Shown in pieces: positions 8,611 through 60,235 of a stretch of DNA of 64,000 nucleotides (positions within the stretch are counted from its first letter, which is position 1; the number at the start of each line of letters is the position of its first letter). This DNA comes from an uncultured Acidobacteriota bacterium. Lineage in GTDB: Bacteria > Acidobacteriota > Thermoanaerobaculia > Multivoradales > UBA5704. The position numbers and the translations under genes were made by a program. The stretch spans positions 1,472,001-1,536,000 of the forward strand of contig CAVYRF010000001.1 of assembly GCA_963770895.1 (NCBI GenBank). The letters are read 5' to 3'. Below the pieces are notes generated by a model. That model did not search any database, had not been told where the DNA came from, and was given only the letters and a program-made list of their open reading frames with translations.

Positions 8611-8639
8611 CTTTTTCGTGATGTCATCGCACAGAGTCA

Positions 8640-8795: not shown

Positions 8796-8844
8796 GCCGG
8801 CAATTGCGACCCGTCGATGTATAGCTGCCATGACGTTTGCACGT

Positions 8845-42168: not shown

Positions 42169-42250
42169 GGCTGGGGCTCCCACGGCGGATGGGACCTGCT
42201 GGCCCGAGGTTCCCATGTATAAGTGCAACCCGCAGTGCGCCGGCCGCCGG

Positions 42251-43177
42251 TCAGACCTTGCGCGCCACGATCTGGAACGAGTCCGTCGGATTCACGCATT
42301 CGCCCGGCGTCGGCGTGCGATGGAATGTCGTTTTGCCGAAACCGTCGAACAGCCGCGCGATCTCCTCCTCGCCGCTCAGCATGTGTCGGGTGTGGACGCT
42401 GGCGAACTGGCGGAACAGCTCGAGCAGGCTGTCGCGGCCGCCGTCCGGGTGCTGCGGGAAGTGGTCGCCGTGCCCGGCCAGCAGCCGCTCGGCGCGCTCG
42501 GCATAGCCGCTGCGCAGCTCGGGGGTGGTGGCGCCGCCGATCATCGCGGTGGTGACCAGGGTGCCGCCCGGCTTGAGCAGCTCCCGCCAGCGCTTGACGA
42601 TCGTCGGCTTGTCCGCCGCCTTGATGACGGTCAGGAACTCGTCGGTGACGATGAGGTCGTAGGCGCCCAGCGGCAGGTCATCGGTGAGCAGGTTGGCGCG
42701 GGCACACTCGACCTGGAAGCCATGCCGGTCGGCATACCATTGGCAGGCGCGCAGCGGGGTGCGACAGATATCGTAGATCTCGATCCGTGGGGCGGCGTCC
42801 ACCTCGACCATCGCGGCGTACAGGGTGGCCAGCATGCCGTAGTCCGCCGCCGCCGAGATCAGCACCCGGCTGTGCGGGGCGCGGCGCAGCACCGCCGTGA
42901 GCGCCTCCTGGTAGAACTCGTACCAGGGTGGCGTCGCCACCATGTTGAGCAGGCGCAGGTACTGCCACGTGCCGTGATACCAGCTGCAGCTGATGTCCGG
43001 CAGGGCCTTGGCTTCCTGGTGTGTCTTGGCCCACTCTTCCATCCCGCCGGTCTCCTTGGCGCCGCAGTGCTGGGCTGCCCACGCCTCCATCAGCGGGGCC
43101 GATTCGATCAAGAGCTCGCGGTTGAACGGATCCAGCTCGTACAGGCGGATGGCAGGAGCGGTGGCTGTCGATGGCAT
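42251..43177 (-). CDS. Class I SAM-dependent methyltransferase-like protein
   Basis: GGAGG RBS; RVLISAAADYG, IYDIC, YDLIVTD, LKPGG motifs. Confidence 0.75.
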   Translation of the reverse strand: MPSTATAPAIRLYELDPFNRELLIESAPLMEAWAAQHCGAKETGGMEEWAKTHQEAKALPDISCSWYHGTWQYLRLLNMVATPPWYEFYQEALTAVLRRAPHSRVLISAAADYGMLATLYAAMVEVDAAPRIEIYDICRTPLRACQWYADRHGFQVECARANLLTDDLPLGAYDLIVTDEFLTVIKAADKPTIVKRWRELLKPGGTLVTTAMIGGATTPELRSGYAERAERLLAGHGDHFPQHPDGGRDSLLELFRQFASVHTRHMLSGEEEIARLFDGFGKTTFHRTPTPGECVNPTDSFQIVARKV

Positions 43178-43264
43178 TCGTCTGTCCTCCAAAGGGTTTC
43201 CATAGGGCAGCGGGCTATGGCGCCGGGGCTACGCTCTGCTCACGCCCCTCGCGCGATGCGAAAC

Positions 43265-43437: not shown

Positions 43438-44199
43438 ATGGCGACAGCGCTCAACCCCGACGCCTTCGTCCGCAAGCAGGACCGGCCCCGAGCCCGCCTG
43501 CGCCTGTTCTGTTTCACCTTCGCGGCATCGAGCGCACAGCTGTTCCACGGCTGGAACGACCACGTTCCCGAATGGATCGAGGTGAGCGGCTGCGAGCTGC
43601 CGGGGCACGGCGGCCGCCTGGCGGAGACACCGGTCTCCAACCAGCACGAAGCGGCGATCGAGATCGCCGATATGTTGGAGCCGGCTATCGATCGCCCCTA
43701 CGCTCTCTTCGGCCACTGCCTGGGCGCCGCCCAGGCATACGAGGCGACCCGCCTGCTGCGCCAGCGCGGCAAAGCGCAGCCGGTGCGCCTGTTCAGCTCC
43801 GGCGCGCGGGGACCCCATCTGGGTATCCCCATCGCCGACGTCGAAAGCATGGACGACGACGTATTCATCGAGCACATGCATCAGGCGTATGCGGCGCCGA
43901 TCGCCTTTTTGCGCCACCCCGAGATGCGGCCGCTCTTCCTGCCCATGGTGCGTGCCGACGCCCGCATGACACAGAACTACCGCTACGTGTCCGGCCCGCC
44001 GGTCGACTACCCGGTGACCGCGGTGGCGGGCGAGACCGACCCCGACGTGCAGATGGAGCACCTGGTCGCTTGGCGCGACCACACCACGGCGCCGGTGACG
44101 GCGCGCATCTACCCCGGGAACCATTTCTTCTTCATCGACAGCGCGCCGCAGCTGCTCGCCGATTTCGCTCGCGAGCTCGCGGCGAGCCTGCCCGGCTGA
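43438..44199 (+). CDS. Type II thioesterase-fold protein with a Cys nucleophile (GHCLG)
   Basis: RLFCF, ELPGHGGR, LFGHCLGA, PGNHFF; GAGGAG RBS. Confidence 0.9.
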   Translation: MATALNPDAFVRKQDRPRARLRLFCFTFAASSAQLFHGWNDHVPEWIEVSGCELPGHGGRLAETPVSNQHEAAIEIADMLEPAIDRPYALFGHCLGAAQAYEATRLLRQRGKAQPVRLFSSGARGPHLGIPIADVESMDDDVFIEHMHQAYAAPIAFLRHPEMRPLFLPMVRADARMTQNYRYVSGPPVDYPVTAVAGETDPDVQMEHLVAWRDHTTAPVTARIYPGNHFFFIDSAPQLLADFARELAASLPG

Positions 44200-44682: not shown

Positions 44683-44757
44683 GAGCCCCGTGTCCGAGCC
44701 GGCCGACCGCCCCGCCCGCCCCGTGACGGAAGGCGCACCCGGGTCCGGAGTGTGCCG

Positions 44758-46086
44758 ATGAAGAGCCGCGGTATGGCAGCGTTCCTCGCCGTCTGGGCGG
44801 GGCAGGTGGTTTCCTCTCTGGGAACCGGTCTTAGCGGGTTCGCCCTCGGGGTATGGGTATACCAGCGGACGGGCTCGGCGACACGGTTCGCCCTCATTAC
44901 CTTGGTGACGACGCTGCCCGGCATTTTCCTGACACCGATCGCGGGCGCGCTGGTGGACCGCTGGGACCGTCGCCGGGCGATGATCCTGAGCAACGCGGGC
45001 GCGGGGTGCACCACCCTGATCCTCGCGCTCCTGTTCTGGTACGGCCGGCTGGAGCTCTGGCACATCTACCTCCTCCTGGCTCTCGGCTCGGCGTTCGGCA
45101 CCCTTCAGTGGCCGGCCTTTTCCGCGGCAACGACCCTGCTCGTCCCCAAGGAGCACCTCGGGCGCGCCGCCGGCCTGACGCAGGCGGGGGCAGCGGTCTC
45201 CGTGATCCTGGCCCCGGTGCTCGCCGGCGTTCTGGTAGTGAGGATCGGGCTCCAAGGGGTCGTGCTCGTCGACTGCGCGACCTTCGTCGTAGCGCTGGCT
45301 ACTCTCCTGTGCGTCCATGTGCCGCGCGCCGAGGTCACGGCGGAGGGACTGGCGACCCGGGGCTCCCTGCTGCGCGAGGCCGCATCGGGATGGTCGTACA
45401 TCCGCCAGCGGCCGGGCCTCCTGTCGCTGCTGGGTCTGAGCGCCGCGAGCAACTTCAGTGTGGGGATGATGCAGGTCCTGGTGACTCCGATGATCCTCTC
45501 CTTCACCTCGGCCGCCGTGCTGGGCCGCGTGATGTCGGTGGCCGGGGTCGGCATGCTCGCGGGCAGTCTACTGATCAGTGTGTGGGGCGGGCCCTCGCGG
45601 CGGGTTTTGGGCATCCTCGGCTTCATGATGCTCCAGGGCGCCATCCTCTTGGCTGGAGGGCTGTGGCCCAGCGCGATACTCATTGCCGCGGCGGGGTTCG
45701 TGTTCCTGTTCACCGTGCCGATCATCCTCGGCTGCAGCCAGGCCATCTGGCAGTCCAAGGTCGCGCCGGACCTGCAGGGACGGGTGTTCGCGGTGCGCAG
45801 GATGGTGGCCTGGTCGACCCTGCCGCTGAGCTACCTCATCACCGGGCCTCTGACGGACCGCGTCTTCGAGCCGCTGCTCGCGGTGAACGGCCCTCTCGCG
45901 GGCAGCGTCGGACGGCTCATCGGAGTGGGGAAGGGGCGTGGGAGCGCCCTTCTCCTCATCCTCCTCGGGGTACTCGTCATGGTGACGGCCGCGGCGTTCT
46001 CCCGGTACTCCCGGCTGCGGCAGCTCGAGTCGGAGCTGCCGGACGTACTACCGGAAACGTGGCTGGAACCGGCGTCGCAGACATAA
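44758..46086 (+). CDS. MFS transporter (macrolide-efflux/DHA3-like)
   Basis: Multiple TM helices; AGALVDRWDRR and DLQGRVFA. Confidence 0.92.
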   Translation: MKSRGMAAFLAVWAGQVVSSLGTGLSGFALGVWVYQRTGSATRFALITLVTTLPGIFLTPIAGALVDRWDRRRAMILSNAGAGCTTLILALLFWYGRLELWHIYLLLALGSAFGTLQWPAFSAATTLLVPKEHLGRAAGLTQAGAAVSVILAPVLAGVLVVRIGLQGVVLVDCATFVVALATLLCVHVPRAEVTAEGLATRGSLLREAASGWSYIRQRPGLLSLLGLSAASNFSVGMMQVLVTPMILSFTSAAVLGRVMSVAGVGMLAGSLLISVWGGPSRRVLGILGFMMLQGAILLAGGLWPSAILIAAAGFVFLFTVPIILGCSQAIWQSKVAPDLQGRVFAVRRMVAWSTLPLSYLITGPLTDRVFEPLLAVNGPLAGSVGRLIGVGKGRGSALLLILLGVLVMVTAAAFSRYSRLRQLESELPDVLPETWLEPASQT

Positions 46087-46363: not shown

Positions 46364-46427
46364 TCCTTGCCATGCGGCCCAATAGCCTGATTGAAATCTT
46401 TCGAGCCGAGACTCTGGAGAGCTGGTT

Positions 46428-49400
46428 GTGACCGGGCGGCTCAAGGACCTGATCATTCTGCGCGGACGCAACTACTACCCGCAGGATATCGAGCGCACGG
46501 CCGCGCGGGTCCACCCGGCCCTGCGGCCGGACGGCGGAGCGGCCTTTTCGATCGAGCGCGAGGGCACAGCGCGCCTGGTGGTGGCGCAGGAGGTCGAGCA
46601 CGGCCGTGCGGATGTGCCGGATATGGCAGCTCTCGCCGAGGAGGTCCGGCGGATGGTTGCCGACGAGCTCGAGGTCGCGGTCGACGAGGTCGTGCTCCTG
46701 CGTAGCGGGACCCTCCCCAAGACCACCAGCGGCAAGGTCCGGCGCCAGGCTTGCCGGGAGGAGTACCTCGCGGGGAGGCTTTCCGTCGCCGGGCGCAGCG
46801 GGCTCGCCGCCGGCCGGGATCTGCCGGAAGACACCCCCACCAGCTTTGGCGATCTCGGGACGCTCGATCCGGCTGCCATCCGGGCGCTCGTCGCCGCGGA
46901 GGCCGCGCGCGTCCTCGGTCTCGACCCCGGAAGGCTGATGCCGGACCGTCCCCTCGCCGCGCTCGGACTGGACTCGCTGGCCGCTGTCGAGCTCAAGGCG
47001 GGACTGGAAGAGAAATCCGGTGTCTCCTTGTCGCTCACCCGGCTGCTCTCCGGGGCGAGCCTGGCGTCCGTCGCGGCGGAGGTGCTGGCGGGATCGGCGG
47101 TGCCGCGCCAGGTGCCGGAGTTGGAGATCGGGGCTCCTCTCGGCGACCATCCCCTCTCGGCAGGGCAGGAGGCTCTCTGGTTCTCCGACCGGCTGGCTCC
47201 GGAGGCCGCCGCTTACAATGTGGCGACGGCCGTCCACGTCGAGGGGGGGCTCGACCCGGAAGCCCTGGGGCGCTCCCTCCAGGCTCTGGCCGACCGCCAT
47301 CCGGCCCTGCGGACCACTTTCTTCTCTCAGCTCGGCGAGCCGCGCCAGATCGTTCACGAGCGCCTCGCCGTGGATTTCCGCGTCGAGCCATCGGGGTCGA
47401 AGGGGGCGGAGATCCCGCTCGTGGCCGAGGCCTACCGCCCATTCGATCTCGAAAACGAGTCTCTTCTACGGGTCCGGGTCTGGCCTCTGGAGGGTGGCGG
47501 CTGGCTTTTGCTCCTCGTCGTACACCATCTGGTGACCGATTTCTGGTCGCTCGGCCTCTTCGTCCGGGAGCTTGCAGCGCTCTATGGCGAGGCGACCGGC
47601 CAGGGACCGGCGCGGCTCGCACCCCTGCCGCTCGGCTACACCGACTACGTCCGCTGGCAGGGCAATCTTCTTGCCGGGGAGCAAGGTGAGCGGCTCTGGG
47701 AGCACTGGCGCCAACAGCTCTCGGGAGATCTTCCCGTGCTTGAGCTGGTGACGGACCGTCCCCGTCCCGCCGTCCAGACATATATCGGCCTCTCCCGCGG
47801 CCTGCGCCTCGCGCCCGAGCTTGCGGACCGGCTGCGGGCGCTCAGTCTGGCTTCGGGAACGACGCTCTTCGTCACTCTTCTGGCCGGGTTCCAGGCTCTC
47901 CTTGGCCGTTGCACCGGACAGGATGAGGTCGTGATCGGCTCCCCCACGGTGGGCCGGGGCGCCGCGCCCTTCCTGGGGGTGATGGGCTACTTCGTCAACC
48001 CGGTGGCGCTCCGCCTCTCCAGCGCCGGCGATCCTGCCTGGCGCGATCTCCTTTCGTTCGCCAAGGCGGTTTGTCTCGCCGCATTCGAGCACCGGGATCT
48101 CCCCTTTGCCACCTTGGCCGAGCGGCTCCATCCCGAGCGAGACCCCAGCCGTTCCCCGGTTTTCCAGACACTCTTCGCGCTCCAGAAGGCGCAGCGGCCG
48201 GAGGAGAGGGGCCTGGCGGAACTCGCCGCCGGAATAGAGAGGGCTCGGGCCACTCTGTCGGATCTCGAGCTCGTTGCCGTCCCCCTCGAGGAGTGCCGCT
48301 CTCCCTTCGACCTCACGTTGACGGCCGCCGATGCCGAGGCGGGCCTCCCGATCGTCCTGCAAGTCAACCGCGACCTCTTCGATCCCGCTACGGCGGAACG
48401 CCTTCTGCGTGCTCTCGAAAATCTGCTGTACGCCCTGGCTGAGGATCTCGATGCCCGAGTCTCCGCGGCCGAGATGCTCGGGGACGCGGAGCGCCGGCAA
48501 TGCGAGGCCTGGAGCCGCACCACGGTCGAGCTGCCGCGCGGCCTCTGCCTGCCGGACCTCTTCGCCGCGCAGGCGGAGCGCACTCCGGGGCGAGAGGCCC
48601 TCGTCGCCGGCAGTGAGCGTCTCACCTACCGAGAGCTGAGCCGTCGGGTGGAGATCCTGGCGCGGAGGCTTCGCGTCCTCGGCGTCGGACCGGAGAGCCG
48701 GGTCGGGGTTTCCGTCGGCCGATCCGCCGATCTCGTCGTCGCGCTTCTCGCGGTCTTGCGGGCAGGCGGCGCCTACGTGCCGCTCGACCCCGTTCAGCCC
48801 GCCGAGCGGCTCGCCTGGATGCTGCAGGACTCCGGGGCGGAGGTGTTGCTCGTCGAGGAGCGCCTCGCTCCAGGCCTGCTGGCAGCCGGGGTGCCCGCAC
48901 GCTGCCGAATCGTCTTGCTCGACCGCGGCGCGCACCGCAGCAGAGCCCAGCGGGGGATCCAGGGACGGCAAGATCCCATACTGCCCGGAAATCTCGCCTA
49001 CCTGATCTATACCTCGGGATCGACGGGACGGCCGAAGGGAGTGGCGATCGAGCACCGGAGCGCGGTGACGCTCGTACAGTGGGCGCGGCAGGTCTTCACG
49101 GACGCCGAGCTGTCCGGGGTCCTCGCCGCCACCTCGATCGGCTTCGACCTCTCGGTCTTCGAGCTCTTCGTACCTCTTTGCTGGGGTGGCCGGGTGATCC
49201 TGGCCGAGAATGCCCTGGCCCTCCCCGGACTGCCCGCGGCGGGCGAGGTGCGGCTGGTCAACACCGTGCCTTCGGTCCTCGCCGAGCTGGTCCGTGGGGA
49301 GGACGGGCTGGAGCTGCCGGGCTCGGTCACCACGATCAACCTGGCCGGAGAGCCCCTGCCGCGCTCCCTGGTGCGGGCCATCCACGAGAAACACCCGGCG

Positions 49401-52400
49401 GCGCGGGTGCTCAACCTCTACGGCCCTTCCGAGGACACCACCTACTCGACGTTCGCCGTGGTCTCGCCGGACGGAGAGCTGCCGCCGGCCATCGGCCGGC
49501 CGATCGCCAACACCCAGGCCCATGTGCTGGACCGCGGCAGACGCCAGGTGCCGGCCGGCGTGCCAGGCGAGCTCCATCTCGGCGGAGAGGGTCTGGCGCG
49601 CGGCTACCACGGGCGGCCGGATCTCACGGCGGAGCGGTTCGTGCCGGACCCGTTCGCGACGGGAGCGCGGCTCTACAGGACCGGGGACCTGGCCCGCTGG
49701 CGGCCGGACAGGGAGCTCGAGTTCCTCGGCCGCATCGATCATCAGGTGAAGATCCGCGGCGTCCGCATCGAGCCGGCGGAAGTGGAATCGGCGCTGCTCT
49801 CGCGGCCGGGAGTGCGCGAGGCGGTGGTCCTGCCGCAGGGGGAGGGTAGCGACCGGCGCCTCATCGCCTATGTCGTCGCCGAGACCGGTGCGGAGCTGGA
49901 CGAGGGCGCCCTCCGCGAGTCGCTCCTCGGGCTCCTGCCGCGGGCCATGGTGCCCGCGGCGATCGTGCCAGTTCCCGGGCTGCCGCTCACTCCGAACGGC
50001 AAGCTGGACCGCCGCGTCCTGGCGCGGCTCGCCCCGGAGCCATCGGCAGGTGGAGGAGGGGAGCCCGCGGCGCCGCGCTCGCCGGTGGAGGAGCTGCTCG
50101 CCGGCATCTGGACGGAGGTCCTCGGGGTCGAGCGGGTAGGGGCGGGAGACGACTTCTTCGCGCTCGGCGGGCATTCCCTTCTCGCTCCGCGCGTCCAGGC
50201 ACGGGTGCGCGAACGGCTCGGCGCCGAGCTGCCGCTCTCCGTGTTCTTTCAGCATCGCACGCTGGCGGAGCAGGCGCGGCGGCTCGCCGTCCGCAAGGTG
50301 GACGACCGCCCTCCACTTCGTCCGTCGCCGCGGGAGCGGACCGTTTTTCCTCTCTCCTTCGCTCAGGAACGCGTCTGGTTCCTCGAGCGGCTCGAGCCGG
50401 GCACAGCGGTCTATCACATGGCCGGCAGCACCCGCCTGACCGGCCCACTCGATCTCGCGGCGTTACGCCGCGCGCTTTGCGAGCTCGAGCGGCGGCACGA
50501 CGCCCTCCGCGCCCGGTTCCGGGAAGTAGACGAGATCCCGGTCCAGGAGATCGCCCCTGGGGGGCTGGACGGTCCGGAGTTGCCGGTCGTGTGCCTCGGG
50601 GGGTTGGAACCGGCGGCGCAGGAAGCCGAGGCGGAGCGTCTCACCAGAGACGAAGCCCAGCGCCCCTTCGATCTGGAGAACGGGCCGCCGTGGCGGCTCC
50701 TTCTCCTGCGCAAAGATTCCTGCCTTCACGAGCTCCTCATCACTCTGCACCACATCGCCGCCGATGAGGAATCGCTGGTGATCCTGGCGCGGGAGCTGGC
50801 CGCGCTCTATGCCGCCTTCCACAAAGGAAGGCCTCCCAGGTTGCCGGAGTTGCCGCTGCGCTCCGTTGACTTTGCCCTGTGGCAGAGGGAAGGGCTGGTT
50901 GGCGAGGTGCTGGAGAAGCGGCTCGCCTGGTGGCGGGAACGCCTGGCCGATCTCCCCATCATCGAGGTGGCGGCCGACCGTCCTCGTCCTGAGGCGCGGA
51001 GCTCCCGTGGGGATGTGGTCACCACCGTTTTGTCGCCGGCCCTCGCCGATGCCCTCGCTGCTCTGGGCCGCCGGGAGGGCGTCACGTTGTTCATGGTGCT
51101 CCTCGCCGGCTTCCAGGTCATCCTGGAGCGGATCTCTGGCGAGCCTGAGGTGCCGGTCGGCTGTCCGGTCTCCAACCGCGACCGCGAGCCGATCCTCCCG
51201 GTGATCGGTTTCCTGGTCAACACCCTGGTCCTCCGAGCGAGCAGCACAGCGGCCCCAAGCTTCGGCGGATTCCTGCGGCGGGTGCGGGAAGTCACCGTCG
51301 AGACCTTCGAGCATGGTGATGTCCCGTTCGAGCTGCTGGTCCAAGCACTCCAGCCGGAACGGGCTCTCGGCCGCAACCCACTCTTCGAGGTGGCTTTCGC
51401 GCTCCAGCGGCCACCCCATGGCTGGCAGGTCGACGATCTCGCCTTCGCGCCTCGGATCGTGCCGACCAGGACGGCCAAGTTCGCCCTCACCCTGTTCGCC
51501 ATCGCAGAGGAGGGGAAGCTCTCGCTTCTCCTCGAGTACGCGACGGACCTCTTCGACCGGCCGACCCCGGCGCGCCTGCTGGGTTACCTCGAAACGCTGC
51601 TCGCCGTGGCGGCCGCGGAGCCTGCGCGCCCTCTCGCCCTGCTCCCCTTGTTCGCTCCGGCGGAGCAGCAGGAGCTGATCCATCATCCGGAAGCACGGCT
51701 CTTTCGCAAGGTGGCGAGGGCGCGCGTCCCGGAGAGTCGCGGGGAGAATGGGCCGCGCGTCCTGGCCGCTCCGCGGACTCCCACCGAGGAGCGGCTGGTC
51801 GAGATCTGGGCCGGTGTGCTGGAACGCAGGCAGGTGTCGATCCACGACGACTTCTTCAGCCTCGGTGGCCATTCGCTCCTGGCCTCTCGGGTCGTGGCAC
51901 GGATTCGCAAATCCCTGGGCGTCGACCTGCCGCTCTCGATCCTCTTCACCTGTCCGACCATCGCGCGACTGGCCGGCGAGGTCGACCGCGCGCGCCGCGC
52001 TGCCGATGCGGGCGTGACGGAGGTAGAGCCGGTGGCGGCACCCCTCACCTTCCGCTGGGAGGACGGCTCCGCCCCACCGCTTTCCTTTGCTCAGGAGCAG
52101 CTCTGGTTCATTGACCAGCTGGAGCCGGGGAGCCCGGTTTACAACCTCTCCACCGCCGTATGCCTCGATGGGGCTCTCGACCGGAATGCCCTGCGCAGGG
52201 CTCTGGTCCAGGTCGTCGAGCGCCACTCGGTCCTCCGCACGACCTTGCGCGCCTTCGAGGGGCGACCGGTCCAGGTCGTGGCGCCGCATTTCCTCCCCGT
52301 CCTGCACGAGATCGATCTCCTGGATCTCGCTCCCGGAGTGCGGCAGGACGAGGCGGCGCGCCATGTGGCGGCCGGGGCGCTCGCCCCCTTCGACCTTGCC

Positions 52401-54107
52401 GAAGGCCCCCTCTTCCGCGCTTCCTTGCTGCGGCTGGGCGAGAACAGCCACCTCCTGCTTGTCACCTTCCATCACTCCATCACCGACGGCTGGTCGTTGC
52501 GTATCTTCTATGAAGAGCTCGGGGCGCTCTATGCGGCAGTCCATGGGGAGGTGCCGGTCCTCCCGGCTCTGCCGATCCAATACGCCGACTTCGCCTCCTG
52601 GCAGCGTGAGCGGCTTCGCGGCGGCGTGCTCAAGCGCCTGATCGCCTACTGGCGGCAGCGGCTGGCCGGTGCCCCCGCTGTTCTCGACCTGCCGTTCGAC
52701 CGTCCGCGTCCGCCGGTCCAGACCTACGGCGGCACCTCACAACTCCTGGAGATCGGCACCGAGGCCACACAGGCCCTCCGTACCTTCGCCCGCGACGAGA
52801 GCGCAACCCTCTTCATGGCGCTTACCGCCGCGTGGGCGACACTCCTGCACCTGCTGAGCGACGAGGAGGACGTGATCCTGGGGACTCCCACGGCCAACCG
52901 TTCGCTCCCCGAGCTCGAGCCGCTCATCGGCTTGTTCGCCAACACCATCCCCCTGCGCGTTGATCTCTCGGGAGATCCGACATTCCGCGAGCTCGTCGGA
53001 CGGGTCCGGACCGCAGCGCTGGCCAACTTCGCCCATCAGGAGATGCCGTTCGAGAAGATCGTCGAGGAGCTGAAGCCCGAACGCGACCTCAGCCACCATC
53101 CGATCTATCAGGTGGCCTTCGCGCTCGAGACGTCGTCCCGGCCGGACTTCCTGGACCTCCCCGGCCTGCGGATGGCGCCGCTGCCTCCGACCGAGGGGAC
53201 GGCGAAGTTCGACCTCGCCCTCTACATGGACGACCGCGGCGGCCGGCTCGCCGGTCTGTTCGAGACGAACCGCGATCTTCTCGACCGCAGCACGGCCGCG
53301 CGCTGGCTCGGACACTTCACGGCCCTCGCCGCGGCGGGGGCGGCAGATCCGGCGCGGCGCCTCTCGGAGCTGCCGTTGCTCGGCCCGGCCGAGCAGCTCG
53401 AGCTCCTCAGCCGCGTCGGTGAGCGGGTGAAGGTCCGCGGCTACAGGATCGATCCCCGGATCGTCGAGGCCTCCCTCGTCGGCCATCCGGCGGTCGGCTC
53501 CGCGATCGTGATCCGGCGCGCCGATCCGCCCGCGGAGGAGCGGCTCGTCGCCTATGTGACGGTGCGGCCGGAGCGCTCGGCTCCCAGCGGGGGAGAGCTG
53601 CGCTCGTTTCTCGCCGGGCGCCTGCCCGAGTACATGCTGCCCGGCGCGTTTGTCGTCCTCGCCGATCTGCCACGGACCGCCGGCGGTGAGCTCGACCTGG
53701 GCGCCCTGCCTGTGCCGCAGGAGAAGGCCGACCTCGGCGGCGACCCTATGGCGCCGGGTGACGGTGCTGACGGTGCGGGGCGGATCGTCGCCGAGATCTG
53801 GCAGGAGCTCCTGGAGGTCGAGAAGGTCGAGCTGCGCGACAACTTCTTCGCTCTCGGCGGGCACTCGCTCCTGCTTCTCCCAATGCAGGAGCGCCTGCGC
53901 GAGCGGTTCGGAGTCAGTCTGCCGATCATCGAGCTGTTCAAGTTCCCGACCGCGGGCGCGCTCGCCGCACACCTGGCTGCGAGGAGGGCTGCGGAGGCCC
54001 CCCGTCCCCCCGCGAAGACCCTGGACCGCAGCGACGCTTTGCGCCAGGGCCGCGAGCGGCTGAAGCAGCGCGCGGAGCGGCATGCCCGCAAGACAGGAGC
54101 GAGGTAA
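46428..54107 (+). CDS. NRPS: truncated FAAL-ACP-C-A(Ala)-T-C-T-C-(A subdomain)-T
   Basis: Starts at TGRLKDLIILRGRNYYPQDIE; GLDSL; HHLVTDFWS; A code read by eye DLFNNALTYK; HHIAADEES; HHSITDGWS; three GGHS carriers. Confidence 0.92.
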   Translation: MTGRLKDLIILRGRNYYPQDIERTAARVHPALRPDGGAAFSIEREGTARLVVAQEVEHGRADVPDMAALAEEVRRMVADELEVAVDEVVLLRSGTLPKTTSGKVRRQACREEYLAGRLSVAGRSGLAAGRDLPEDTPTSFGDLGTLDPAAIRALVAAEAARVLGLDPGRLMPDRPLAALGLDSLAAVELKAGLEEKSGVSLSLTRLLSGASLASVAAEVLAGSAVPRQVPELEIGAPLGDHPLSAGQEALWFSDRLAPEAAAYNVATAVHVEGGLDPEALGRSLQALADRHPALRTTFFSQLGEPRQIVHERLAVDFRVEPSGSKGAEIPLVAEAYRPFDLENESLLRVRVWPLEGGGWLLLLVVHHLVTDFWSLGLFVRELAALYGEATGQGPARLAPLPLGYTDYVRWQGNLLAGEQGERLWEHWRQQLSGDLPVLELVTDRPRPAVQTYIGLSRGLRLAPELADRLRALSLASGTTLFVTLLAGFQALLGRCTGQDEVVIGSPTVGRGAAPFLGVMGYFVNPVALRLSSAGDPAWRDLLSFAKAVCLAAFEHRDLPFATLAERLHPERDPSRSPVFQTLFALQKAQRPEERGLAELAAGIERARATLSDLELVAVPLEECRSPFDLTLTAADAEAGLPIVLQVNRDLFDPATAERLLRALENLLYALAEDLDARVSAAEMLGDAERRQCEAWSRTTVELPRGLCLPDLFAAQAERTPGREALVAGSERLTYRELSRRVEILARRLRVLGVGPESRVGVSVGRSADLVVALLAVLRAGGAYVPLDPVQPAERLAWMLQDSGAEVLLVEERLAPGLLAAGVPARCRIVLLDRGAHRSRAQRGIQGRQDPILPGNLAYLIYTSGSTGRPKGVAIEHRSAVTLVQWARQVFTDAELSGVLAATSIGFDLSVFELFVPLCWGGRVILAENALALPGLPAAGEVRLVNTVPSVLAELVRGEDGLELPGSVTTINLAGEPLPRSLVRAIHEKHPAARVLNLYGPSEDTTYSTFAVVSPDGELPPAIGRPIANTQAHVLDRGRRQVPAGVPGELHLGGEGLARGYHGRPDLTAERFVPDPFATGARLYRTGDLARWRPDRELEFLGRIDHQVKIRGVRIEPAEVESALLSRPGVREAVVLPQGEGSDRRLIAYVVAETGAELDEGALRESLLGLLPRAMVPAAIVPVPGLPLTPNGKLDRRVLARLAPEPSAGGGGEPAAPRSPVEELLAGIWTEVLGVERVGAGDDFFALGGHSLLAPRVQARVRERLGAELPLSVFFQHRTLAEQARRLAVRKVDDRPPLRPSPRERTVFPLSFAQERVWFLERLEPGTAVYHMAGSTRLTGPLDLAALRRALCELERRHDALRARFREVDEIPVQEIAPGGLDGPELPVVCLGGLEPAAQEAEAERLTRDEAQRPFDLENGPPWRLLLLRKDSCLHELLITLHHIAADEESLVILARELAALYAAFHKGRPPRLPELPLRSVDFALWQREGLVGEVLEKRLAWWRERLADLPIIEVAADRPRPEARSSRGDVVTTVLSPALADALAALGRREGVTLFMVLLAGFQVILERISGEPEVPVGCPVSNRDREPILPVIGFLVNTLVLRASSTAAPSFGGFLRRVREVTVETFEHGDVPFELLVQALQPERALGRNPLFEVAFALQRPPHGWQVDDLAFAPRIVPTRTAKFALTLFAIAEEGKLSLLLEYATDLFDRPTPARLLGYLETLLAVAAAEPARPLALLPLFAPAEQQELIHHPEARLFRKVARARVPESRGENGPRVLAAPRTPTEERLVEIWAGVLERRQVSIHDDFFSLGGHSLLASRVVARIRKSLGVDLPLSILFTCPTIARLAGEVDRARRAADAGVTEVEPVAAPLTFRWEDGSAPPLSFAQEQLWFIDQLEPGSPVYNLSTAVCLDGALDRNALRRALVQVVERHSVLRTTLRAFEGRPVQVVAPHFLPVLHEIDLLDLAPGVRQDEAARHVAAGALAPFDLAEGPLFRASLLRLGENSHLLLVTFHHSITDGWSLRIFYEELGALYAAVHGEVPVLPALPIQYADFASWQRERLRGGVLKRLIAYWRQRLAGAPAVLDLPFDRPRPPVQTYGGTSQLLEIGTEATQALRTFARDESATLFMALTAAWATLLHLLSDEEDVILGTPTANRSLPELEPLIGLFANTIPLRVDLSGDPTFRELVGRVRTAALANFAHQEMPFEKIVEELKPERDLSHHPIYQVAFALETSSRPDFLDLPGLRMAPLPPTEGTAKFDLALYMDDRGGRLAGLFETNRDLLDRSTAARWLGHFTALAAAGAADPARRLSELPLLGPAEQLELLSRVGERVKVRGYRIDPRIVEASLVGHPAVGSAIVIRRADPPAEERLVAYVTVRPERSAPSGGELRSFLAGRLPEYMLPGAFVVLADLPRTAGGELDLGALPVPQEKADLGGDPMAPGDGADGAGRIVAEIWQELLEVEKVELRDNFFALGGHSLLLLPMQERLRERFGVSLPIIELFKFPTAGALAAHLAARRAAEAPRPPAKTLDRSDALRQGRERLKQRAERHARKTGAR

Positions 54108-54122: not shown

Positions 54123-57100
54123 ATGGAGCAGGACATGAATGAGCCGAATGTCGAACAGATCGAACGGACGGACGTGGAGGGGATCGCCATCGTCGGCATC
54201 GCCGCGCGATTCCCGGGCGCACGCAACGCCGCCGAGCTGTGGCGCAACCTGCGTGACGGGATCGCATCGATCTCGTTCTTCAGCGAGGAGGAGCTGGCTG
54301 CGGCCGGAGTGGAGCCCGCGCTGCTGGCCGATCCACGCTACGTGCGGGCCAAGGGCTCCCTGGAGGACGCGGACCTCTTCGACGCAGCCCTCTTCGGCCT
54401 CACGCCGCGCGAGGCCGAGACCATGGATCCTCAGCACCGGATCTTCCTGGAGTGCGCCTGGGAGGCGCTGGAGGATGCGGCTTGCGATCCGGAGCGCTTC
54501 GGGGGCCGCATCGGCGTCTGGGCCGGCTCGGGCTTCAGCTCCTACCTGCTCTCGAACCTCCTGCCCAACCAAGAGAGGATGGAGGGCTTCGGCGCCCTCC
54601 AGGTGGCGCTCCTGAACGACCGCGACTTCCTCGCCACGAGGGCCTCGTACCAGCTGAATCTCAGGGGACCCAGCGTGTCGGTCCAGACCGCCTGCTCGAC
54701 CTCCCTGGTGGCAACTCACATGGCCTGCCAGGGCCTGATCGGGGGTGAGTGCGACATGGCGCTCGCCGGGGGCGTCTCGATCAGCGCGCCGCTGCGCACG
54801 GGCTACCTGTACCAGGAGGGGAGCGTGCTCTCGCCGGACGGCTGCTGCCGCGCCTTCGACGCCTCCGCGGCCGGCACTGTGGAGGGGAACGGCTGCGGAA
54901 TCATCGTCCTGAAGCGGCTTGACGACGCCCTGGCCGACGGCGACCGCATCTACGCGGTGATCCGCGGCTCGGCGGTGAACAACGACGGATCGGCCAAGAT
55001 CGGCTTCACCGCGCCCAGCGTGGAGGGGCAGGCCTCGGCCATTTCCGAGGCCCTGATCACGGCCGGGGTCGATCCCGCGACGATCGGCTACGTCGAGGCC
55101 CATGGCAGCGGCACGCCGCTCGGCGATCCCATTGAGATTGCGGCGCTCACCAAGGCTTTCCGCGCAGCGGGAGCCGAGGGCATGGGCTTCTGCGCCATCG
55201 GATCGATCAAGACCAACTTAGGCCATTGCAACACGGCGGCGGGCGTGGCCGGGCTCATCAAGGCCACCCTGGCGCTGGCGCACGAGACTCTGCCACCCAG
55301 CCTTCACTACGAGAGCCCCAACCCGCAGATCGACTTCGCCGGCAGCCCCTTCTATATCTGCACAGAGGCGCGGCCGTGGACCACCACTGGAGGGCCGAGG
55401 CGGGCCGGCGCGAGCGCGTTCGGCCTGGGCGGGACGAACGCCCATGCCGTGCTGGAGGAAGCGCCCGAGCAGGAGCCGGGCGATCTCCCCTCGCGGCCGG
55501 CACAGCTCCTGGTCCTTTCGGCCCGCACCCCGGCGGCGCTCGACGCGGCGGCGGCCCGGCTGGCGGACCACCTGGAGGCGAATCCGGACGTCGACATCGC
55601 CGACGTCGCGTGGACCCTTCAAGTCGGGCGCAAGGAGCTCGAGCACCGCCGGATCGCCGTGGCCCGCGACCGCGAGTCCGCCAGCTCCGCGCTCAAGGAC
55701 CGTGCCCCCGCCGCCGTCACCGGCAAGCAGGAGGGCGCATGGTCGAGGCCGGTGGTGTTCCTCTTCCCAGGGCTCGGCGACCAGTACGTGGACATGGCGC
55801 GGGAGCTTTACGAGACCGAGGCGCTCTTCCGCGGGCAGGTCGACCTTTGCGCCTCCAAGCTCCAGTCCTGGCTGGGCGCCGACCTGCGCGAGGTGCTCTT
55901 TTCGCCCGGGGAGTGGTCGCTGCCCGCCAAGGCAGCCCCGGACCTGCGCACCATGCTCCGCCGCAACGCGGAGACCTCGCGCCTCGACGAAACCCTGTTC
56001 GCGCAGCCGGCCTGCTTCGTGGTCGAGTACGCCCTGGGCCGTCTGTTGATGGACTGGGGGATCGTGCCGCGGGCCCTGATCGGCTACAGCCTCGGCGAGT
56101 ACGTGGCGGCGTGCCTGTCGGGAGCGCTCTCCCTGGACGATGCCCTGGAGCTGGTGGCGCGGCGGGCGAAGTTGATCCAGGCCCTCCCCGGGGGAGCCAT
56201 GCTTGCGGTGCCCTTGCCCGAGGAGGAGATCCGGCTCCTGCTGGGGGAGGGCCTGTCGCTCTCCGCTACCAACGGCCCGCATTTCTGTGTGGTGGGAGGG
56301 ACCGGCGAGGCGGTGGATACGCTGGACCGGCAACTGGCCGAGCGCGGTGTGAGCTGCCTCCGGCTGCGGACCACGCACGCGTTCCACTCCGCGCTGATGG
56401 AGCCGGCCGTGGCTCCCTTCACGAAGATTGCGTGCAAGGTGCGCATGCAGGCGCCGGCCATCCCCTTTGTCTCCAACGTCACCGGCACCTGGATCACCGC
56501 GGACGACCTCGCCGGCCCCGCCTACTGGGCGCGGCACCTGCGCCATCCCGTACGCTTCGCGGAGGGCATCGGCGAGCTGCTCCAGGAGCCCGAGCACGTT
56601 TTCCTGGAGGTCGGCCCGGGCGCGACCCTGGGTACGCTGGTCAAGCAGCACCCGGCTGCCGTGGCCAACCGGGTCACGGTGCCGACTCTGCGCGCAGGGG
56701 GCTCCGACCTGGAGACCCTGCTGGAGGCCGTGGGCCGGCTCTGGATCGCGGGGACCCACGTCGACTGGGCCCGCTTTCACGGCGGCGAGCGCCGCCTCAA
56801 GGCGCCGCTGCCGACCTATCCCTTCGAGCGCCAGCGCTACTGGATCGATCCGTCGAAGGACTCGGCGAAACCCGCGGCGGCCGCCGGTCCCGCGGCCGAC
56901 CTCGCGGACTGGTTCTGGGTCCCGGCCTGGAAGCAGGTGCCTCGCATGGCCGGCCTCCGGGAGACCCTCCGCTGGCTGGTCTTTCTGGATGAAGCAGGGC
57001 TGGGAGACAGAATCGCGGCGCGGCTGCGTAAGGACGGCCACGAGGTCGTTACCGCGAGGCCGGGCACCGCCTTCGAGGAGATCGGGGAGGGTGCGTTCAC

Positions 57101-58784
57101 CATCCATCCCGCCCGCCGGCAGGACTACGACGCGCTGCTCCGTGGCAGGCCGCCCGGGAAGATCCTCCACCTCTGGGGGATCACGTCCGTGGCGCCCTCC
57201 TTCGCGGCGGCGCAGACGGCGGGGCTCGTCAGCCTGGTGCTGTTGACGCAAGCCCTCTCGGTCGTCGAGAGCGATACTCAGATCCGGCTCACCGTCGCGA
57301 CCAACGGTCTCCACGAGCTGGTGGACGGCGATCCGATCCATCCCGGCAAGGGCACCCTCCTCGGAGCCCTGAAAGTGTTCCACCAGGAGCTGCCGCGCCT
57401 GACCTGCTCCAGTGTCGACGTCGCGCTCTCCGCAGTCGAGCAAGACCGCCTCGTGGAACAGCTCCTGGCCGAGATATCTGGTCCGGCGGAGACGGTCGTG
57501 GCCCTGCGGGGCCGCCAGCGTTGGGTCCGAGGCTTCGAGCCGATGCGTCTCGCCGATGAGGGGTCCAGGCTCGCCGAGGAGGGTGTCTACCTGATCGCCG
57601 GTGCCGCGCATGGTCCCGGCATGGCGATGGCCGAGCATCTGGTGCGCTCGGGAGCCCGGGTCGGGCTGGTCCTGCCGCCGCAGCTTCCGGCACGGGAGCA
57701 GTGGGAGACCTGGAAGGGGCTGCCTGAGCTGCCGCCAGGACAGGACGTGATCGGTGCCGTCATTCTGCGGCTCCTGGCGATCGAGCGTGAGGTGGGGCTC
57801 GACCGGGTCCTGATCCTGCGCTCGGACCCGGCAGCGGCCCTCACAGAGACCCGCGCCCGCTTCGGCCCGATTCATGGCGTCTTCTTCACCGGCGGCATTT
57901 TCGCCGGCGGCCTGATCCAGCTCAAGGCTCCGGAGGCCCTGCAGAAAGCCCTGGCCCCGCTGGCCCGGGAGGCCGAAACGCTCCTCGACGCCGTGGACGC
58001 CGCACCCGAGCCGCCTTCCTTCGTCATGCTGTCTTCCACCGTCCTTGCCGTCACGGGCGGCCTGGGCCAGCTCGAGGTTGCCGCGGCCGGTGGCTTCCTG
58101 GAGGCGCTCGCCGCGTGGCGGAATGCGGAGGGGAAGCCATTCACCGTGGCTGCGCACTGGGATGCTTATCAGTGGGGTGGCTGGCTGGTGACCGGGGTGG
58201 CCGGCGGCATGTCCGGCTTCACTCCGGAAGCGGTGCAGGCGAATCTGGCGACGTACGGCGTCTCGGAGGATCAGAGCGCCGGCGCGATGCGGCGGCTCTT
58301 GGCGAGCTCCCTGCCCCGGGTGATCGTCTCCGCCCAGGATCTCCCCCGTCTGATTGCAGCCGCGGACAGCGTCACCGCGGACACCCTGCTGGCCCAGATG
58401 GCGCCGGCCCACCACGGAGAAAGGGCGCAGAGGCCGGGGCTCTCGACCGCCTATGAGCCGCCGCGGGACGAGCTCGAAGAGAGCCTCGCCGGCATCTGGC
58501 AGGACCTCTTCGGCATCGAGCCCATCGGCCGAGACGACACCTTCCTGGAGCTGGGCGGCCATTCACTCCTCGCCGTCCAGATCGTCACGCAGATCCGGAG
58601 CGTTCTGGAGGTCGACCTGCCGGTGACCACGCTCTTCGAGTCACCGACTGTCACGGAGCTGGCCAAGGCTGTGCGCCGAGCTCGCGGCCAGGGCACCCCC
58701 GTGAACGTGGAGGCGCTGCTCGCCCTGGTCGAGGGGATCTCCCCCGCCGAAGCCGCGCAGAAGCTCGCGGAGCTGGGGGTCTGA
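54123..58784 (+). CDS. Type I PKS module: KS-AT-degenerate KR-carrier
   Basis: TACSTS, EAHGSGT, NLGH; AT motifs GYSLG and HAFH (malonyl type); KR-like region with IAGAAHGPG; GGHSL. Confidence 0.93.
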   Translation: MEQDMNEPNVEQIERTDVEGIAIVGIAARFPGARNAAELWRNLRDGIASISFFSEEELAAAGVEPALLADPRYVRAKGSLEDADLFDAALFGLTPREAETMDPQHRIFLECAWEALEDAACDPERFGGRIGVWAGSGFSSYLLSNLLPNQERMEGFGALQVALLNDRDFLATRASYQLNLRGPSVSVQTACSTSLVATHMACQGLIGGECDMALAGGVSISAPLRTGYLYQEGSVLSPDGCCRAFDASAAGTVEGNGCGIIVLKRLDDALADGDRIYAVIRGSAVNNDGSAKIGFTAPSVEGQASAISEALITAGVDPATIGYVEAHGSGTPLGDPIEIAALTKAFRAAGAEGMGFCAIGSIKTNLGHCNTAAGVAGLIKATLALAHETLPPSLHYESPNPQIDFAGSPFYICTEARPWTTTGGPRRAGASAFGLGGTNAHAVLEEAPEQEPGDLPSRPAQLLVLSARTPAALDAAAARLADHLEANPDVDIADVAWTLQVGRKELEHRRIAVARDRESASSALKDRAPAAVTGKQEGAWSRPVVFLFPGLGDQYVDMARELYETEALFRGQVDLCASKLQSWLGADLREVLFSPGEWSLPAKAAPDLRTMLRRNAETSRLDETLFAQPACFVVEYALGRLLMDWGIVPRALIGYSLGEYVAACLSGALSLDDALELVARRAKLIQALPGGAMLAVPLPEEEIRLLLGEGLSLSATNGPHFCVVGGTGEAVDTLDRQLAERGVSCLRLRTTHAFHSALMEPAVAPFTKIACKVRMQAPAIPFVSNVTGTWITADDLAGPAYWARHLRHPVRFAEGIGELLQEPEHVFLEVGPGATLGTLVKQHPAAVANRVTVPTLRAGGSDLETLLEAVGRLWIAGTHVDWARFHGGERRLKAPLPTYPFERQRYWIDPSKDSAKPAAAAGPAADLADWFWVPAWKQVPRMAGLRETLRWLVFLDEAGLGDRIAARLRKDGHEVVTARPGTAFEEIGEGAFTIHPARRQDYDALLRGRPPGKILHLWGITSVAPSFAAAQTAGLVSLVLLTQALSVVESDTQIRLTVATNGLHELVDGDPIHPGKGTLLGALKVFHQELPRLTCSSVDVALSAVEQDRLVEQLLAEISGPAETVVALRGRQRWVRGFEPMRLADEGSRLAEEGVYLIAGAAHGPGMAMAEHLVRSGARVGLVLPPQLPAREQWETWKGLPELPPGQDVIGAVILRLLAIEREVGLDRVLILRSDPAAALTETRARFGPIHGVFFTGGIFAGGLIQLKAPEALQKALAPLAREAETLLDAVDAAPEPPSFVMLSSTVLAVTGGLGQLEVAAAGGFLEALAAWRNAEGKPFTVAAHWDAYQWGGWLVTGVAGGMSGFTPEAVQANLATYGVSEDQSAGAMRRLLASSLPRVIVSAQDLPRLIAAADSVTADTLLAQMAPAHHGERAQRPGLSTAYEPPRDELEESLAGIWQDLFGIEPIGRDDTFLELGGHSLLAVQIVTQIRSVLEVDLPVTTLFESPTVTELAKAVRRARGQGTPVNVEALLALVEGISPAEAAQKLAELGV

Positions 58785-60235
58785 TGAGCGTCGCCGACCG
58801 CCTGTCCTCCTTGAGCCGGGAGCAGCGGGCCCTGTTCGAGCGGCTGCTGCAGCAGCAGAGCCGCCCGGGGGCCCGAACTCCGCCGCCGGTACGCCCGGTC
58901 TCCGGCCCGTCCGGCGTCGGCGACTGGCCTCTCTCCTTCGACCAGGAGCGGGTCTTGCAGCTCCACCGGGACGATCCCGGTCTGGTCGCCTGGAACGTGG
59001 ATGTGGGCAGCCACGTCACGGGCGAGCTGGATGTCCCTCTGTTCCTGGCCGCCTTCCGCGAGGTCGTCCGCCGGCACGCGGCTTGGCGCACCACGTTTCC
59101 GGTCGTGGATGGCCGTCCCGTGCAGCGGGTCCATCCCTGGGTGGAGCCCGGGGCCTGCGTCATCGACTTGAGCGAACTGCCGGCGGCGAGGAAGGAGGAG
59201 ACAGGGCACGCGGCCCTCTACGAGCACACGCGGAACCCGTTCGACCTGGAGGAGGGACCACTGCTGCGCATCGCGCTGGTGCGGCTCGCCGGGCGGGAGC
59301 ATCTGCATCAGGTGACGATCCATCACACGGTCACGGACTGGATCGCCTATCAGATCTTCTTCCAGGAGCTGATCGCCCTGTACGAGGCGTTCCGCGCCGG
59401 CCGTCCCTCGCCGCTGCCGCCGCCGCCCGTGCAGTTCCCCGACTTTGCCGTGTGGGAGCGGGAGTGGCTCCAGGGGGAGGTGCTGGACGAAGAGGCCCGC
59501 TTCTGGCGCCGGGAGCTGGAGGGCTTCCCCTTGGTGCTGGACCTTCCGGCGAGCCGCCCTCGTCCGCCGGTGCAGAGCCAGCGGGGTGGGCTCCTGCGCA
59601 TCGCGGCCGGGTCCGGGCGCACGGACCGCCTGCGAGCGCTGGCGCAGAGGGAGGGGGGCACCATGTTCATGGCGGTGCTGGCTGTCCTCAACGCGCTCGT
59701 GCGGGGCCTCACCGGGCGGGACAGAATCGTGATCGGCTCGAACAGCGCCAACCGGCCCCGGCCGGAGCTGGCGGGGGTGGCCGGCTTCTTCCTCACCCAG
59801 GTGCCCTTCGCGACCGACGTGTCGGGAGATCCCACGTTCCGCGAGCTGCTCGCCCGCACGAAGCGAACGGCCCTGGCGGCCTACGCTCACCAGAACCTGC
59901 CGTTCACCAAGCTGATCGAAGCGCTGGAGCTGGAGCCCGACCCGAGCCGCTACCCGGTCGTGCAGGTCCTCCTTCTGGTCCTGGAGGGGCAGAGCCGGGG
60001 TCGATCCGGGAACCTGGATTTCCGGCCGGTGTGGATCTCCGACGGCAACTCCCGCTGGGACCTCGCGATCGTCCTCTACGACTACCACGACGTCGGTCTC
60101 ACCGGGGCCCTGGAGTACAACGCGGACATCTTCGATGCCCGGGACGCCGAGCGGCTGGTCGGTCGGTTGCTCTCGATCCTCGATGCCGTGGCCACCGACC
60201 CCGACGTCCACCTGTCCGGTCTGGAGCTCAGATGA
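58784..60235 (+). CDS. Stand-alone condensation-family protein
   Basis: PLSFDQER, HAAWRTTF, PFDL, HHTVTDW; no A or T domain. Confidence 0.88.
   Translation: MSVADRLSSLSREQRALFERLLQQQSRPGARTPPPVRPVSGPSGVGDWPLSFDQERVLQLHRDDPGLVAWNVDVGSHVTGELDVPLFLAAFREVVRRHAAWRTTFPVVDGRPVQRVHPWVEPGACVIDLSELPAARKEETGHAALYEHTRNPFDLEEGPLLRIALVRLAGREHLHQVTIHHTVTDWIAYQIFFQELIALYEAFRAGRPSPLPPPPVQFPDFAVWEREWLQGEVLDEEARFWRRELEGFPLVLDLPASRPRPPVQSQRGGLLRIAAGSGRTDRLRALAQREGGTMFMAVLAVLNALVRGLTGRDRIVIGSNSANRPRPELAGVAGFFLTQVPFATDVSGDPTFRELLARTKRTALAAYAHQNLPFTKLIEALELEPDPSRYPVVQVLLLVLEGQSRGRSGNLDFRPVWISDGNSRWDLAIVLYDYHDVGLTGALEYNADIFDARDAERLVGRLLSILDAVATDPDVHLSGLELR

Follow-up and report, generated by a model that had tools for sequence, protein, structure and literature searches.

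Two consecutive modules lacking adenylation domains in an Acidobacteriota family of nonribosomal peptide synthetases, and a cysteine-nucleophile thioesterase that may serve them

Modules of nonribosomal peptide synthetases (NRPSs) in which a condensation (C) domain and a thiolation (T) carrier stand without an adenylation (A) domain of their own have been described in several systems. In SidC (C3-A3-T3-C4-T4-C5-T5) A3 loads T3, T4 and T5 across two A-less modules, and in SidD A1 loads T2, the second module of that protein being a degenerate or 'dA' module without approximately 290 N-terminal residues (PMC10192304). Aminoacyl groups are transferred between carriers by SyrC, CmaE and CysB, the last of which supplies CysK module 3 with a residue from the stand-alone CysH once that residue has been tailored on its carrier (PMC7966384). 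The type II thioesterase (TEII) LgnA, whose nucleophile is S77, delivers threonine to the A-less C1-T1 of LgnD, with the A-T protein LgnB as donor, and WS5, WS20 and RthD have been proposed to act like LgnA (PMC8748450). The A-less C-PCP (condensation and peptidyl carrier protein domains) of Cal19 is served by trans A domains and a single A domain of yersiniabactin HMWP2 loads three carriers (PMC7539972), while CmnI borrows the A1 domain of CmnA (PMC12400406). Here we describe an NRPS with two consecutive A-less modules that is encoded by an uncultured soil acidobacterium, in a 64,000 nucleotide stretch of approximately 70% G+C referred to below as the window (assembly GCA_963770895.1, contig CAVYRF010000001.1, positions 1,472,001 to 1,536,000).

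With SidC, SidD and Nps6, the window's NRPS shares one A domain followed by two consecutive A-less C-T modules (SidC), A-domain relics without the N-terminal 290-300 or so residues, and carriers that depend on a non-cognate A domain for their loading. It differs from SidC and SidD in being bacterial, in being a hybrid with a fatty acyl-AMP ligase (FAAL) and acyl carrier protein (ACP) at its start and a polyketide synthase (PKS) as its continuation, and in having more eroded relics, with only the small C-terminal A subdomain (Asub) in module 3 and about 15 residues in module 2. The family also has a TEII with a cysteine nucleophile (Cys-TEII), two methyltransferases and a stand-alone A-T protein, none of which is needed by SidC. 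The systems described as fed by a shuttle (SyrE module 9 with SyrB1/SyrC, CysK module 3 with CysH/CysB, LgnD C1-T1 with LgnB/LgnA, and Cal19/WS with WS22, WS23, WS5 and WS20) have in common with the window a C-T module that has no functioning A domain, an A-T didomain encoded apart from it, an alpha/beta-hydrolase-type transferase (in the window a putative one) and enzymes that could tailor the carrier-bound residue before its transfer. Unlike them, the window has two consecutive A-less modules in one protein, its putative shuttle is a PF00975 TEII with cysteine where LgnA has serine and SyrC and CmaE use an active-site cysteine, and the A-T is missing near the NRPS of one relative (locus L021). 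In CmnA-A1/CmnI and HMWP2, a single A domain is proposed or shown to serve several carriers, A-less ones included, but these lie on other proteins or in cyclisation modules, whereas in the window both lie downstream in the same polypeptide and behind ordinary C domains. The literature already has examples of two A-less modules in succession, of truncated A relics, of loading in trans or between modules and of shuttles of the thioesterase type; what is specific here is the Acidobacteriota family, its graded series of relics, a fixed Cys-TEII clade, and half C domains on a radical-SAM protein and on the A-T protein. Literature searches found no paper on this NRPS cluster family or on its TEII clade.

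The A-less modules, their relatives and their relics

The NRPS is encoded by a frame of 2559 codons that translates without interruption to one stop at its end. A Pfam scan of the whole protein gave three Condensation, four PP-binding and two AMP-binding_C matches and a single AMP-binding core (residues 712-1061), and when the protein was scanned a second time in eight separate pieces no AMP-binding core was found in pieces 5-8. The features of the open reading frame (ORF), with the PKS gene that follows it (ketosynthase, KS; acyltransferase, AT; ketoreductase, KR), are as follows.

46428-54107, plus strand: NRPS ORF, 2559 residues, with the layout (FAAL C-subdomain)-T0-C1-A1-T1-C2-T2-C3-Asub-T3 by Pfam
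46446-46787, plus strand: orphan FAAL C-terminal subdomain (residues 7-120), with no FAAL core upstream by Pfam
46890-47078, plus strand: T0, an ACP, by Pfam
47151-48500, plus strand: C1, motif HHLVTDF, by Pfam and motif search
48561-50003, plus strand: A1, the sole complete A domain of the protein (core, and C-subdomain with its GKLD lysine)
50094-50285, plus strand: T1, by Pfam
50337-51677, plus strand: C2 (Condensation, E 5e-88, profile positions 2-455 of 456)
approximately 51678-51788, plus strand: C2-T2 linker, 36 residues (1752-1787), by alignment
51789-51977, plus strand: T2 (PP-binding, E 9e-18; GGHS at 51864-51875, serine codon 51873-51875)
52077-53408, plus strand: C3 (Condensation, E 4e-95)
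53424-53696, plus strand: Asub, relic of an A-domain C-terminal subdomain, from RVKVRGYRIDP to LPRTAGGELD
53787-53975, plus strand: T3 (PP-binding, E 2e-15; GGHS at 53856-53867, serine codon 53865-53867)
54123-58784, plus strand: PKS module KS-AT-KR-ACP, predicted from domains and gene order to take the chain from T3

Modules 2 and 3 each consist of a full C domain with its histidine motif and a carrier with its serine, with no A core between the two, and the profile matches behind this layout are far too strong to have arisen by chance. The original prediction of two consecutive NRPS modules without A domains is thus borne out by the single AMP-binding core, and its details were recovered as well. 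The short C2-T2 linker, placed by that prediction at approximately 51680-51775, lies almost exactly there; C3 is followed only by the small C-terminal subdomain of an A domain, seen as an AMP-binding_C match standing alone at 53463-53687 (E 5e-12, profile positions 2-75 of 76), and then by T3. The intact frame, the carrier serines, the C2 motif HHIAADE (residues 1441-1447, 50748-50768) and the C3 motif HHSITDG (residues 2015-2021, 52470-52490) were all located where they had been reported. Within Asub, motif A8 (RVKVRGYRIDP) occupies 53424-53456 and the peptide LPRTAGGELD 53667-53696, the position of the A10 lysine being a glutamate (GGELD) in the window's protein. After T3, the succession KS-AT-KR(-DH)-ACP, with or without a dehydratase (DH) domain, and then C-A-T is found in the window and in loci L002, L004 and L021, which marks module 3 as a conserved NRPS-to-PKS hand-over.

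Relatives were collected by searching a set of 5.8 billion proteins with residues 1290-2559 and by scanning GTDB genomes. Seven are distinct: P0003 (95% identical to the window's protein), L001 (94%), P0004, which is encoded in L002 (approximately 83%), and, at 63-76%, P0013, P0023, P0071 (99.96% identical to the L004 ORF) and P0085 (exactly the L021 ORF). All named records among them are metagenome-assembled genomes (MAGs) of Thermoanaerobaculia or Acidobacteriota. Loci L003 and L005, whose contigs end before the region of modules 2 and 3, were left out of the count. In the domain maps of all seven relatives a full A core is missing between C2 or C3 and the carrier behind it; this comparison with homologues had been proposed as the test of the layout, and since full A domains are absent at both positions in every relative, it indicates that the layout is neither a misassembly nor a recent deletion. 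In a seven-sequence alignment spanning 63-95% identity, HHIAADE, the C3 motif HHxxTDG and both GGHS serines are invariant. A-less modules are also common around the family, at least one being present in 24 of the 120 best search matches (window included) and in 17 of the 113 outside the family, according to a BLAST-based domain map that is biased to A-less layouts by the query and in which weak A matches may be mis-scored. Among these are P0116, which reads C-T-C-T, and P0022, which ends in C-Asub-T.

A junction alignment of the family revealed what is left of the A domains. In module 2 of the window, the C2-T2 linker contains a 15 residue relic of the A7 region, HPEARLFRKVARARV (51684-51728). 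P0004 retains approximately 170 residues there, in which the stretch of an A core from A6 through A7 to the hinge can still be read (VLDRDLRPVGVGTPGDLYLGG, ARLYRTGERVRFRSDGRIERLGR); both P0004 and P0023 keep A-core positions of approximately 317-400 (A6-A7), the P0023 relic being slightly shorter, those of P0071 and P0085 shorter still, and P0013 having next to nothing of the A domain left. Asub has gone completely from module 2. In module 3, Asub from A8 onward is present in all seven aligned family proteins, window included, and P0004 has an A6-A7 piece in addition. Motifs A1-A5 of modules 2 and 3 were kept by no relative in this alignment. The A8 core of Asub is invariant in the seven sequences (R2337, G2338, Y2339, R2340 and D2342; R-G-Y-R-x-D), while the A10 lysine position is glutamate in four, lysine in two and arginine in one, a combination that fits a domain no longer adenylating. 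By its sequence the window's locus has the form of a dA module, with a relic that lacks the N-terminal 290 or so residues lying between C and T. The unequal lengths of the relics among relatives argue that loss of the A domains is old and erosion is ongoing, and most simply each A core would have lost its N-terminal 300 or so residues in a single early deletion and would since have eroded independently from one relative to the next, a process that would still continue.

We estimated dN/dS pairwise for each domain by the Nei-Gojobori method. Between the window and L002 the A-less part gave 0.27 for C2, 0.35 for T2, 0.19 for C3, 0.33 for Asub and 0.31 for T3, and the complete module 0.24 for C1, 0.26 for the A1 core and 0.14 for T1; against L004 and L021, C2 and C3 gave 0.33-0.35. 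Values against L001 were higher and noisy (C2 0.60, Asub 2.4, linker 3.6), on very few substitutions. By these estimates the A-less modules are under purifying selection similar to that on the complete module, and from this and the conserved layout modules 2 and 3 are presumably functional elongation modules. The T2 of the window, P0003 and P0004 is an ordinary carrier resembling T1, whereas that of P0013, P0023, P0071 and P0085 nearly duplicates T3 (GGHSLLLLPIQERL); T2 has a dN/dS of approximately 1 between the window and L004 and L021, which suggests a carrier swap or gene conversion at T2 within the family. The comparison of T2 and T3 carrier types across the seven sequences did not discriminate between loading routes.

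The cassette beside the NRPS and its thioesterase

Upstream of the NRPS lies a cassette of four genes, three of them on the opposite strand (S-adenosylmethionine, SAM).

43438-44199, plus strand: TEII-fold protein, 253 residues, candidate aminoacyl shuttle (PF00975, E 6e-36)
42251-43192, minus strand: class I SAM-dependent methyltransferase-like protein (Pfam matches just under cut-off; first Atlas match, 0.99, to a class I methyltransferase cluster)
39700-42228, minus strand: B12-binding radical-SAM methylase of the PhpK family (TIGR04479, 640.4 bits with a cut-off of 600, residues 24-528)
36934-39636, minus strand: stand-alone (C-terminal-lobe-only C)-A-T protein, 900 residues, with a complete A domain and a carrier by Pfam

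The most telling neighbour, which the original prediction had passed over, is the thioesterase. Its nearest solved relatives are TEIIs, RifR and those of RedJ type, and the position aligned to Ser94 of RifR is a cysteine (GHCLG, codon 43717-43719), the aspartate and histidine being retained. By its sequence the protein is an alpha/beta-hydrolase with an intact nucleophile-Asp-His triad, encoded beside an NRPS, and lacks the GHSxG serine nucleophile of the editing TEIIs of RifR and SrfD type. The Cys-Asp-His triad is present in all five orthologues (window, L002, L003, L004 and L021), which are about 80% identical. Among database clusters at 54% or greater identity to the thioesterase, 69 of 70 carry GHCLG and the remaining one has phenylalanine at that position, while 28 of 32 database matches at 40% identity or less have serine. 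The Cys-TEII clade is sharply bounded and comprises about 70 clusters at 90% identity, nearly all metagenomic and annotated only as thioesterase or hydrolase, and from its size the NRPS cluster family appears to be widespread. When the window was compared with 80 other loci, matches of 79% or more to the thioesterase occurred only in the same five loci, which are all of the cassette-bearing ones; none of the other 76 reached this level, and their best matches, in three loci, were at 31-38%. Many of the 80 loci have flanks that are short or cut by contig ends, and absence of the cassette from those is weak evidence.

Across the same loci the radical-SAM gene and a full methyltransferase gene were found only in the window, L002, L003 and L021, with a 41 residue fragment of the methyltransferase at the contig start of L004. 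The radical-SAM protein also matches PF04055 (E 5e-21) and, under its cut-off, PF02310 (24 bits), and its TIGR04479 score places it, by sequence, in the PhpK family. A C-terminal extension of approximately 285 residues (39700-40560, minus strand) bears a weak resemblance to a C-domain C-terminal lobe (E 0.01 against C1, and 0.21 in Pfam). At its start the A-T protein has such a half C domain as well (38827-39636, minus strand, Pfam profile positions 193-456), and these two half C domains, neither of which has a histidine motif, adjoin each other. The original prediction had a stand-alone A-T as the source of the residue: the gene is indeed present, and is syntenic in three of the four loci in which that flank is visible (window, L002 and L003), but it encodes a half-C-A-T protein and was not found within 5 kb past the radical-SAM gene in the fourth, L021; the contig of L004 does not take in this flank. 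Sequence searches of the PDB with A1 and with the stand-alone A domain returned generic NRPS matches only and no specificity call; LgrA came out on top because two of its A domains add up (approximately 285 and 325 bits each). Read by eye from a hand alignment and given no weight, the A1 code is approximately D-L-F-(T/N)-N-A-L-T-Y-K, which we take to be of the cysteine type.

Loading of T2 and T3

The original prediction had the carriers supplied by the stand-alone A-T or 'loaded iteratively'. The latter term is not quite right, the alternatives being inter-modular loading by A1 or transfer by a shuttle. We favor shuttle-mediated trans-loading of the kind described for SyrC, CysB and LgnA, and would put its probability at roughly 0.45. 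According to this proposal, modules 2 and 3 would have lost their own A domains through deletion of the N-terminal core, and their carriers would be primed with an aminoacyl group activated elsewhere. An amino acid would be thioesterified on the T domain of the stand-alone (half-C)-A-T, on T1 by A1, or on both; on the A-T carrier, the B12 radical-SAM enzyme and the class I methyltransferase could modify it. The Cys-TEII would then pass the residue to T2 and T3 by way of an acyl-S-Cys intermediate, after which C2 and C3 would carry out normal condensation and T3 would hand the chain to the downstream KS. As a hybrid variant, the thioesterase might move the A1-activated residue from T1 to T2 and T3. 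Three points of this scheme are inferred: the role of the thioesterase as a transferase, the identity of the donor carrier and that of the residue transferred.

The grounds for this preference are three. The thioesterase with its fixed cysteine is the most conserved neighbour of the NRPS, and by established chemistry an acyl-S-Cys intermediate is isoenergetic with the thioesters of carriers, which here would favor transfer over hydrolysis. The A-T gene, where present, lies in an operon with two methyltransferases, which is the usual picture of on-carrier tailoring. Direct loading by A1, finally, would leave the cassette without an obvious tie to the assembly line.

Several observations weigh against shuttle loading. 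The proven TEII shuttle LgnA uses serine, so that a cysteine is not required (PMC8748450), and cysteine thioesterases also carry out beta-lactam and beta-lactone release, as in SulM and ObiF (PMC11298585); the Cys-TEII could thus be a release or editing enzyme. SidC, which is the best-documented precedent for an A-T followed by two A-less C-T modules and had not been considered earlier, loads both from an upstream A domain without a shuttle (PMC10192304). In L021, which keeps the thioesterase, methyltransferase and radical-SAM genes, no A-T was found within 5 kb past the radical-SAM gene, a membrane-protein-like ORF and a UbiA homologue standing there instead. In the 94% relative L001 no cassette was found on the visible 5' side, which has a phosphoglucomutase and an MFS (major facilitator superfamily) gene; its cassette is either elsewhere in the MAG or dispensable.

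A bolder, joint version of shuttle loading would make the GHCLG TEIIs a dedicated and so far undescribed clade of carrier-to-carrier aminoacyl transferases, some 70 clusters in size, that spread one residue onto two A-less modules after its on-carrier C-methylation by the B12 radical-SAM enzyme, the latter being docked through its C-lobe appendage, with Asub of module 3 serving as a carrier-presentation adaptor for the thiolation step only. As a whole we consider this speculative and unlikely.

A strong rival, though in our judgment a somewhat doubtful one, is direct inter-modular loading, in which A1 would aminoacylate T1, T2 and T3 (n, n+1 and n+2) and place three copies of one residue in the product, and the cassette would have another role in tailoring, editing or release. 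The order A1-T1-C2-T2-C3-(relic)-T3 is the architecture of the SidC tri-ornithine region, and relics without the N-terminal 300 or so residues match the 'dA' domains of SidD and Nps6, which lack approximately 290 (PMC10192304). The use of CmnA-A1 by CmnI is a further parallel (PMC12400406), and the serine of LgnA and the release enzymes just mentioned (PMC11298585) tell in its favor too, as do the missing nearby A-T of L021 and the missing cassette of L001. The invariant A8 and variable A10 of Asub would agree with a function limited to presenting the carrier; module 2, however, has no Asub at all, so that Asub is not needed to load T2. Direct loading also offers no reason for a Cys-TEII clade fixed beside this NRPS family in five of five cassette-bearing loci, or for a separate A-T retained in three of four.

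It is also conceivable that the A-less modules are skipped or are mere spacers, or that the whole cluster is decaying without a product, and the state of the window's own copy lends this some color. In L002 and L003 the NRPS begins with a complete FAAL. In the window the following remnant is left.

46372-46431, plus strand: remnant of the original FAAL start (leader MRPNSLIEIFRAETLESWL, ending in a stop; start MRPNSLIEIFRAE), out of frame with the long ORF, by comparison with L001, L002 and L003

The stop of this leader (46429-46431) overlaps the GTG at 46428 that opens the long frame inside the FAAL C-subdomain, and the window's FAAL has been lost through a deletion that is out of frame. In L001 the FAAL was lost independently, through another deletion that is in frame and joins the first 44 or so FAAL residues to T0 (L001:3399-3600). 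An MFS efflux-type gene (44752-46086) stands between the thioesterase and the NRPS only in the window and L001, having apparently moved in front of the NRPS; L002 has MFS fragments at the other end of the cassette, beyond the A-T gene and on the opposite strand, and similarity between the window and L001 ends at nucleotide 44747, at the MFS start, beyond which L001 continues with the phosphoglucomutase and not with the cassette. The cluster moreover adjoins 20 kb of mobile elements, in a block that extends over 12000-37200 and holds the following genes (IS, insertion sequence).

12130-13029, minus strand: tyrosine integrase
17083-17955, minus strand: IS3-type transposase
22047-23177: rve-domain protein
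22863-25136, minus strand: large serine recombinase
26182-27740: IS21 pair with IstB
34980-37211: DUF3631 protein

To these signs of decay may be added the higher dN/dS values against L001 for C2, Asub and the linker, with their very few substitutions. Against them stand the intact 7.7 kb frame, the catalytic motifs of C2, C3, T2 and T3 that are invariant across the seven sequences, and dN/dS values of 0.19-0.35 against L002 and, for C2 and C3, of similar size against L004 and L021. Those last two loci have no FAAL, their NRPS beginning at T0, and yet keep all else, which indicates that a FAAL in cis is dispensable for the family. Dead modules are improbable, we believe; the comparisons show that the window's cluster has been recently rearranged and that the A-less modules are much older and separate from these events.

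We regard as still more improbable that T2 and T3 receive something other than an amino acid, from an enzyme outside the window, or that C2 and C3 are non-condensing. The C2 motif is HHxxxDE instead of HHxxxDG and is invariantly so in the family, and a dehydrating C* domain stands beside A-less modules in LgnD (PMC8748450). Both C2 and C3, however, match the full Condensation profile at the E values listed above and retain the motif's aspartate and both of its histidines, and nothing in the cluster stood out as a possible loader of a different type. An assembly or sequencing artefact, whether a collapsed repeat or a chimeric contig, is scarcely credible: NRPS repeats are prone to misassembly, but the same layout recurs with in-frame junctions in seven relatives assembled independently from different MAGs or metagenomes, and the junction sequences can be aligned and contain relics.

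Flanking genes and wider meaning

The gene cluster extends past the end of the window at 64000. In the PKS, the KS motifs TACST, EAHGSGT and NLGHC are, we assume, the usual Cys and His motifs, and the AT (residues 650-660 or so) has GYSLG, where the usual motif is presumably GHSxG, along with HAFH. The window's PKS is less than 50% identical to that of L002, so that the downstream genes are no help in defining the product. Next comes a free-standing C-domain protein of 483 residues (58784-60235) whose start overlaps the PKS stop and whose stop overlaps the following ATG. The protein that begins there (60232-64000) has a TubC-like docking helix and then C-A-T, which gives C followed by C without a carrier between; this arrangement also occurs in L001, while L002 has C-A-T-C-A at that place. 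On the other side of the cluster, an isolated match to the TubC_N docking domain (approximately 36308-36442, plus strand, E 5e-8) falls at the start of an ORF continuing into the 3' end of the A-T gene, and resembles what is left of a further NRPS gene. Type III CRISPR-associated genes (a RAMP protein and a Csm6 with a HEPN domain) and an ORF with a CHAT domain were found near the window's left end, at 1025-4242 and 8386-9066.

The logic of NRPSs is in principle left unchanged by these findings. Should the Cys-TEII prove to act as a shuttle, engineers of assembly lines would gain in it a compact part with which to introduce tailored residues. Predictors based on collinearity would miss or mis-assign two residues for a widespread cluster family of soil Acidobacteriota. 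Within that family, the graded relics offer a clean natural record of how A-less modules originate, by one N-terminal deletion and slow erosion thereafter, with the C and T domains remaining constrained.

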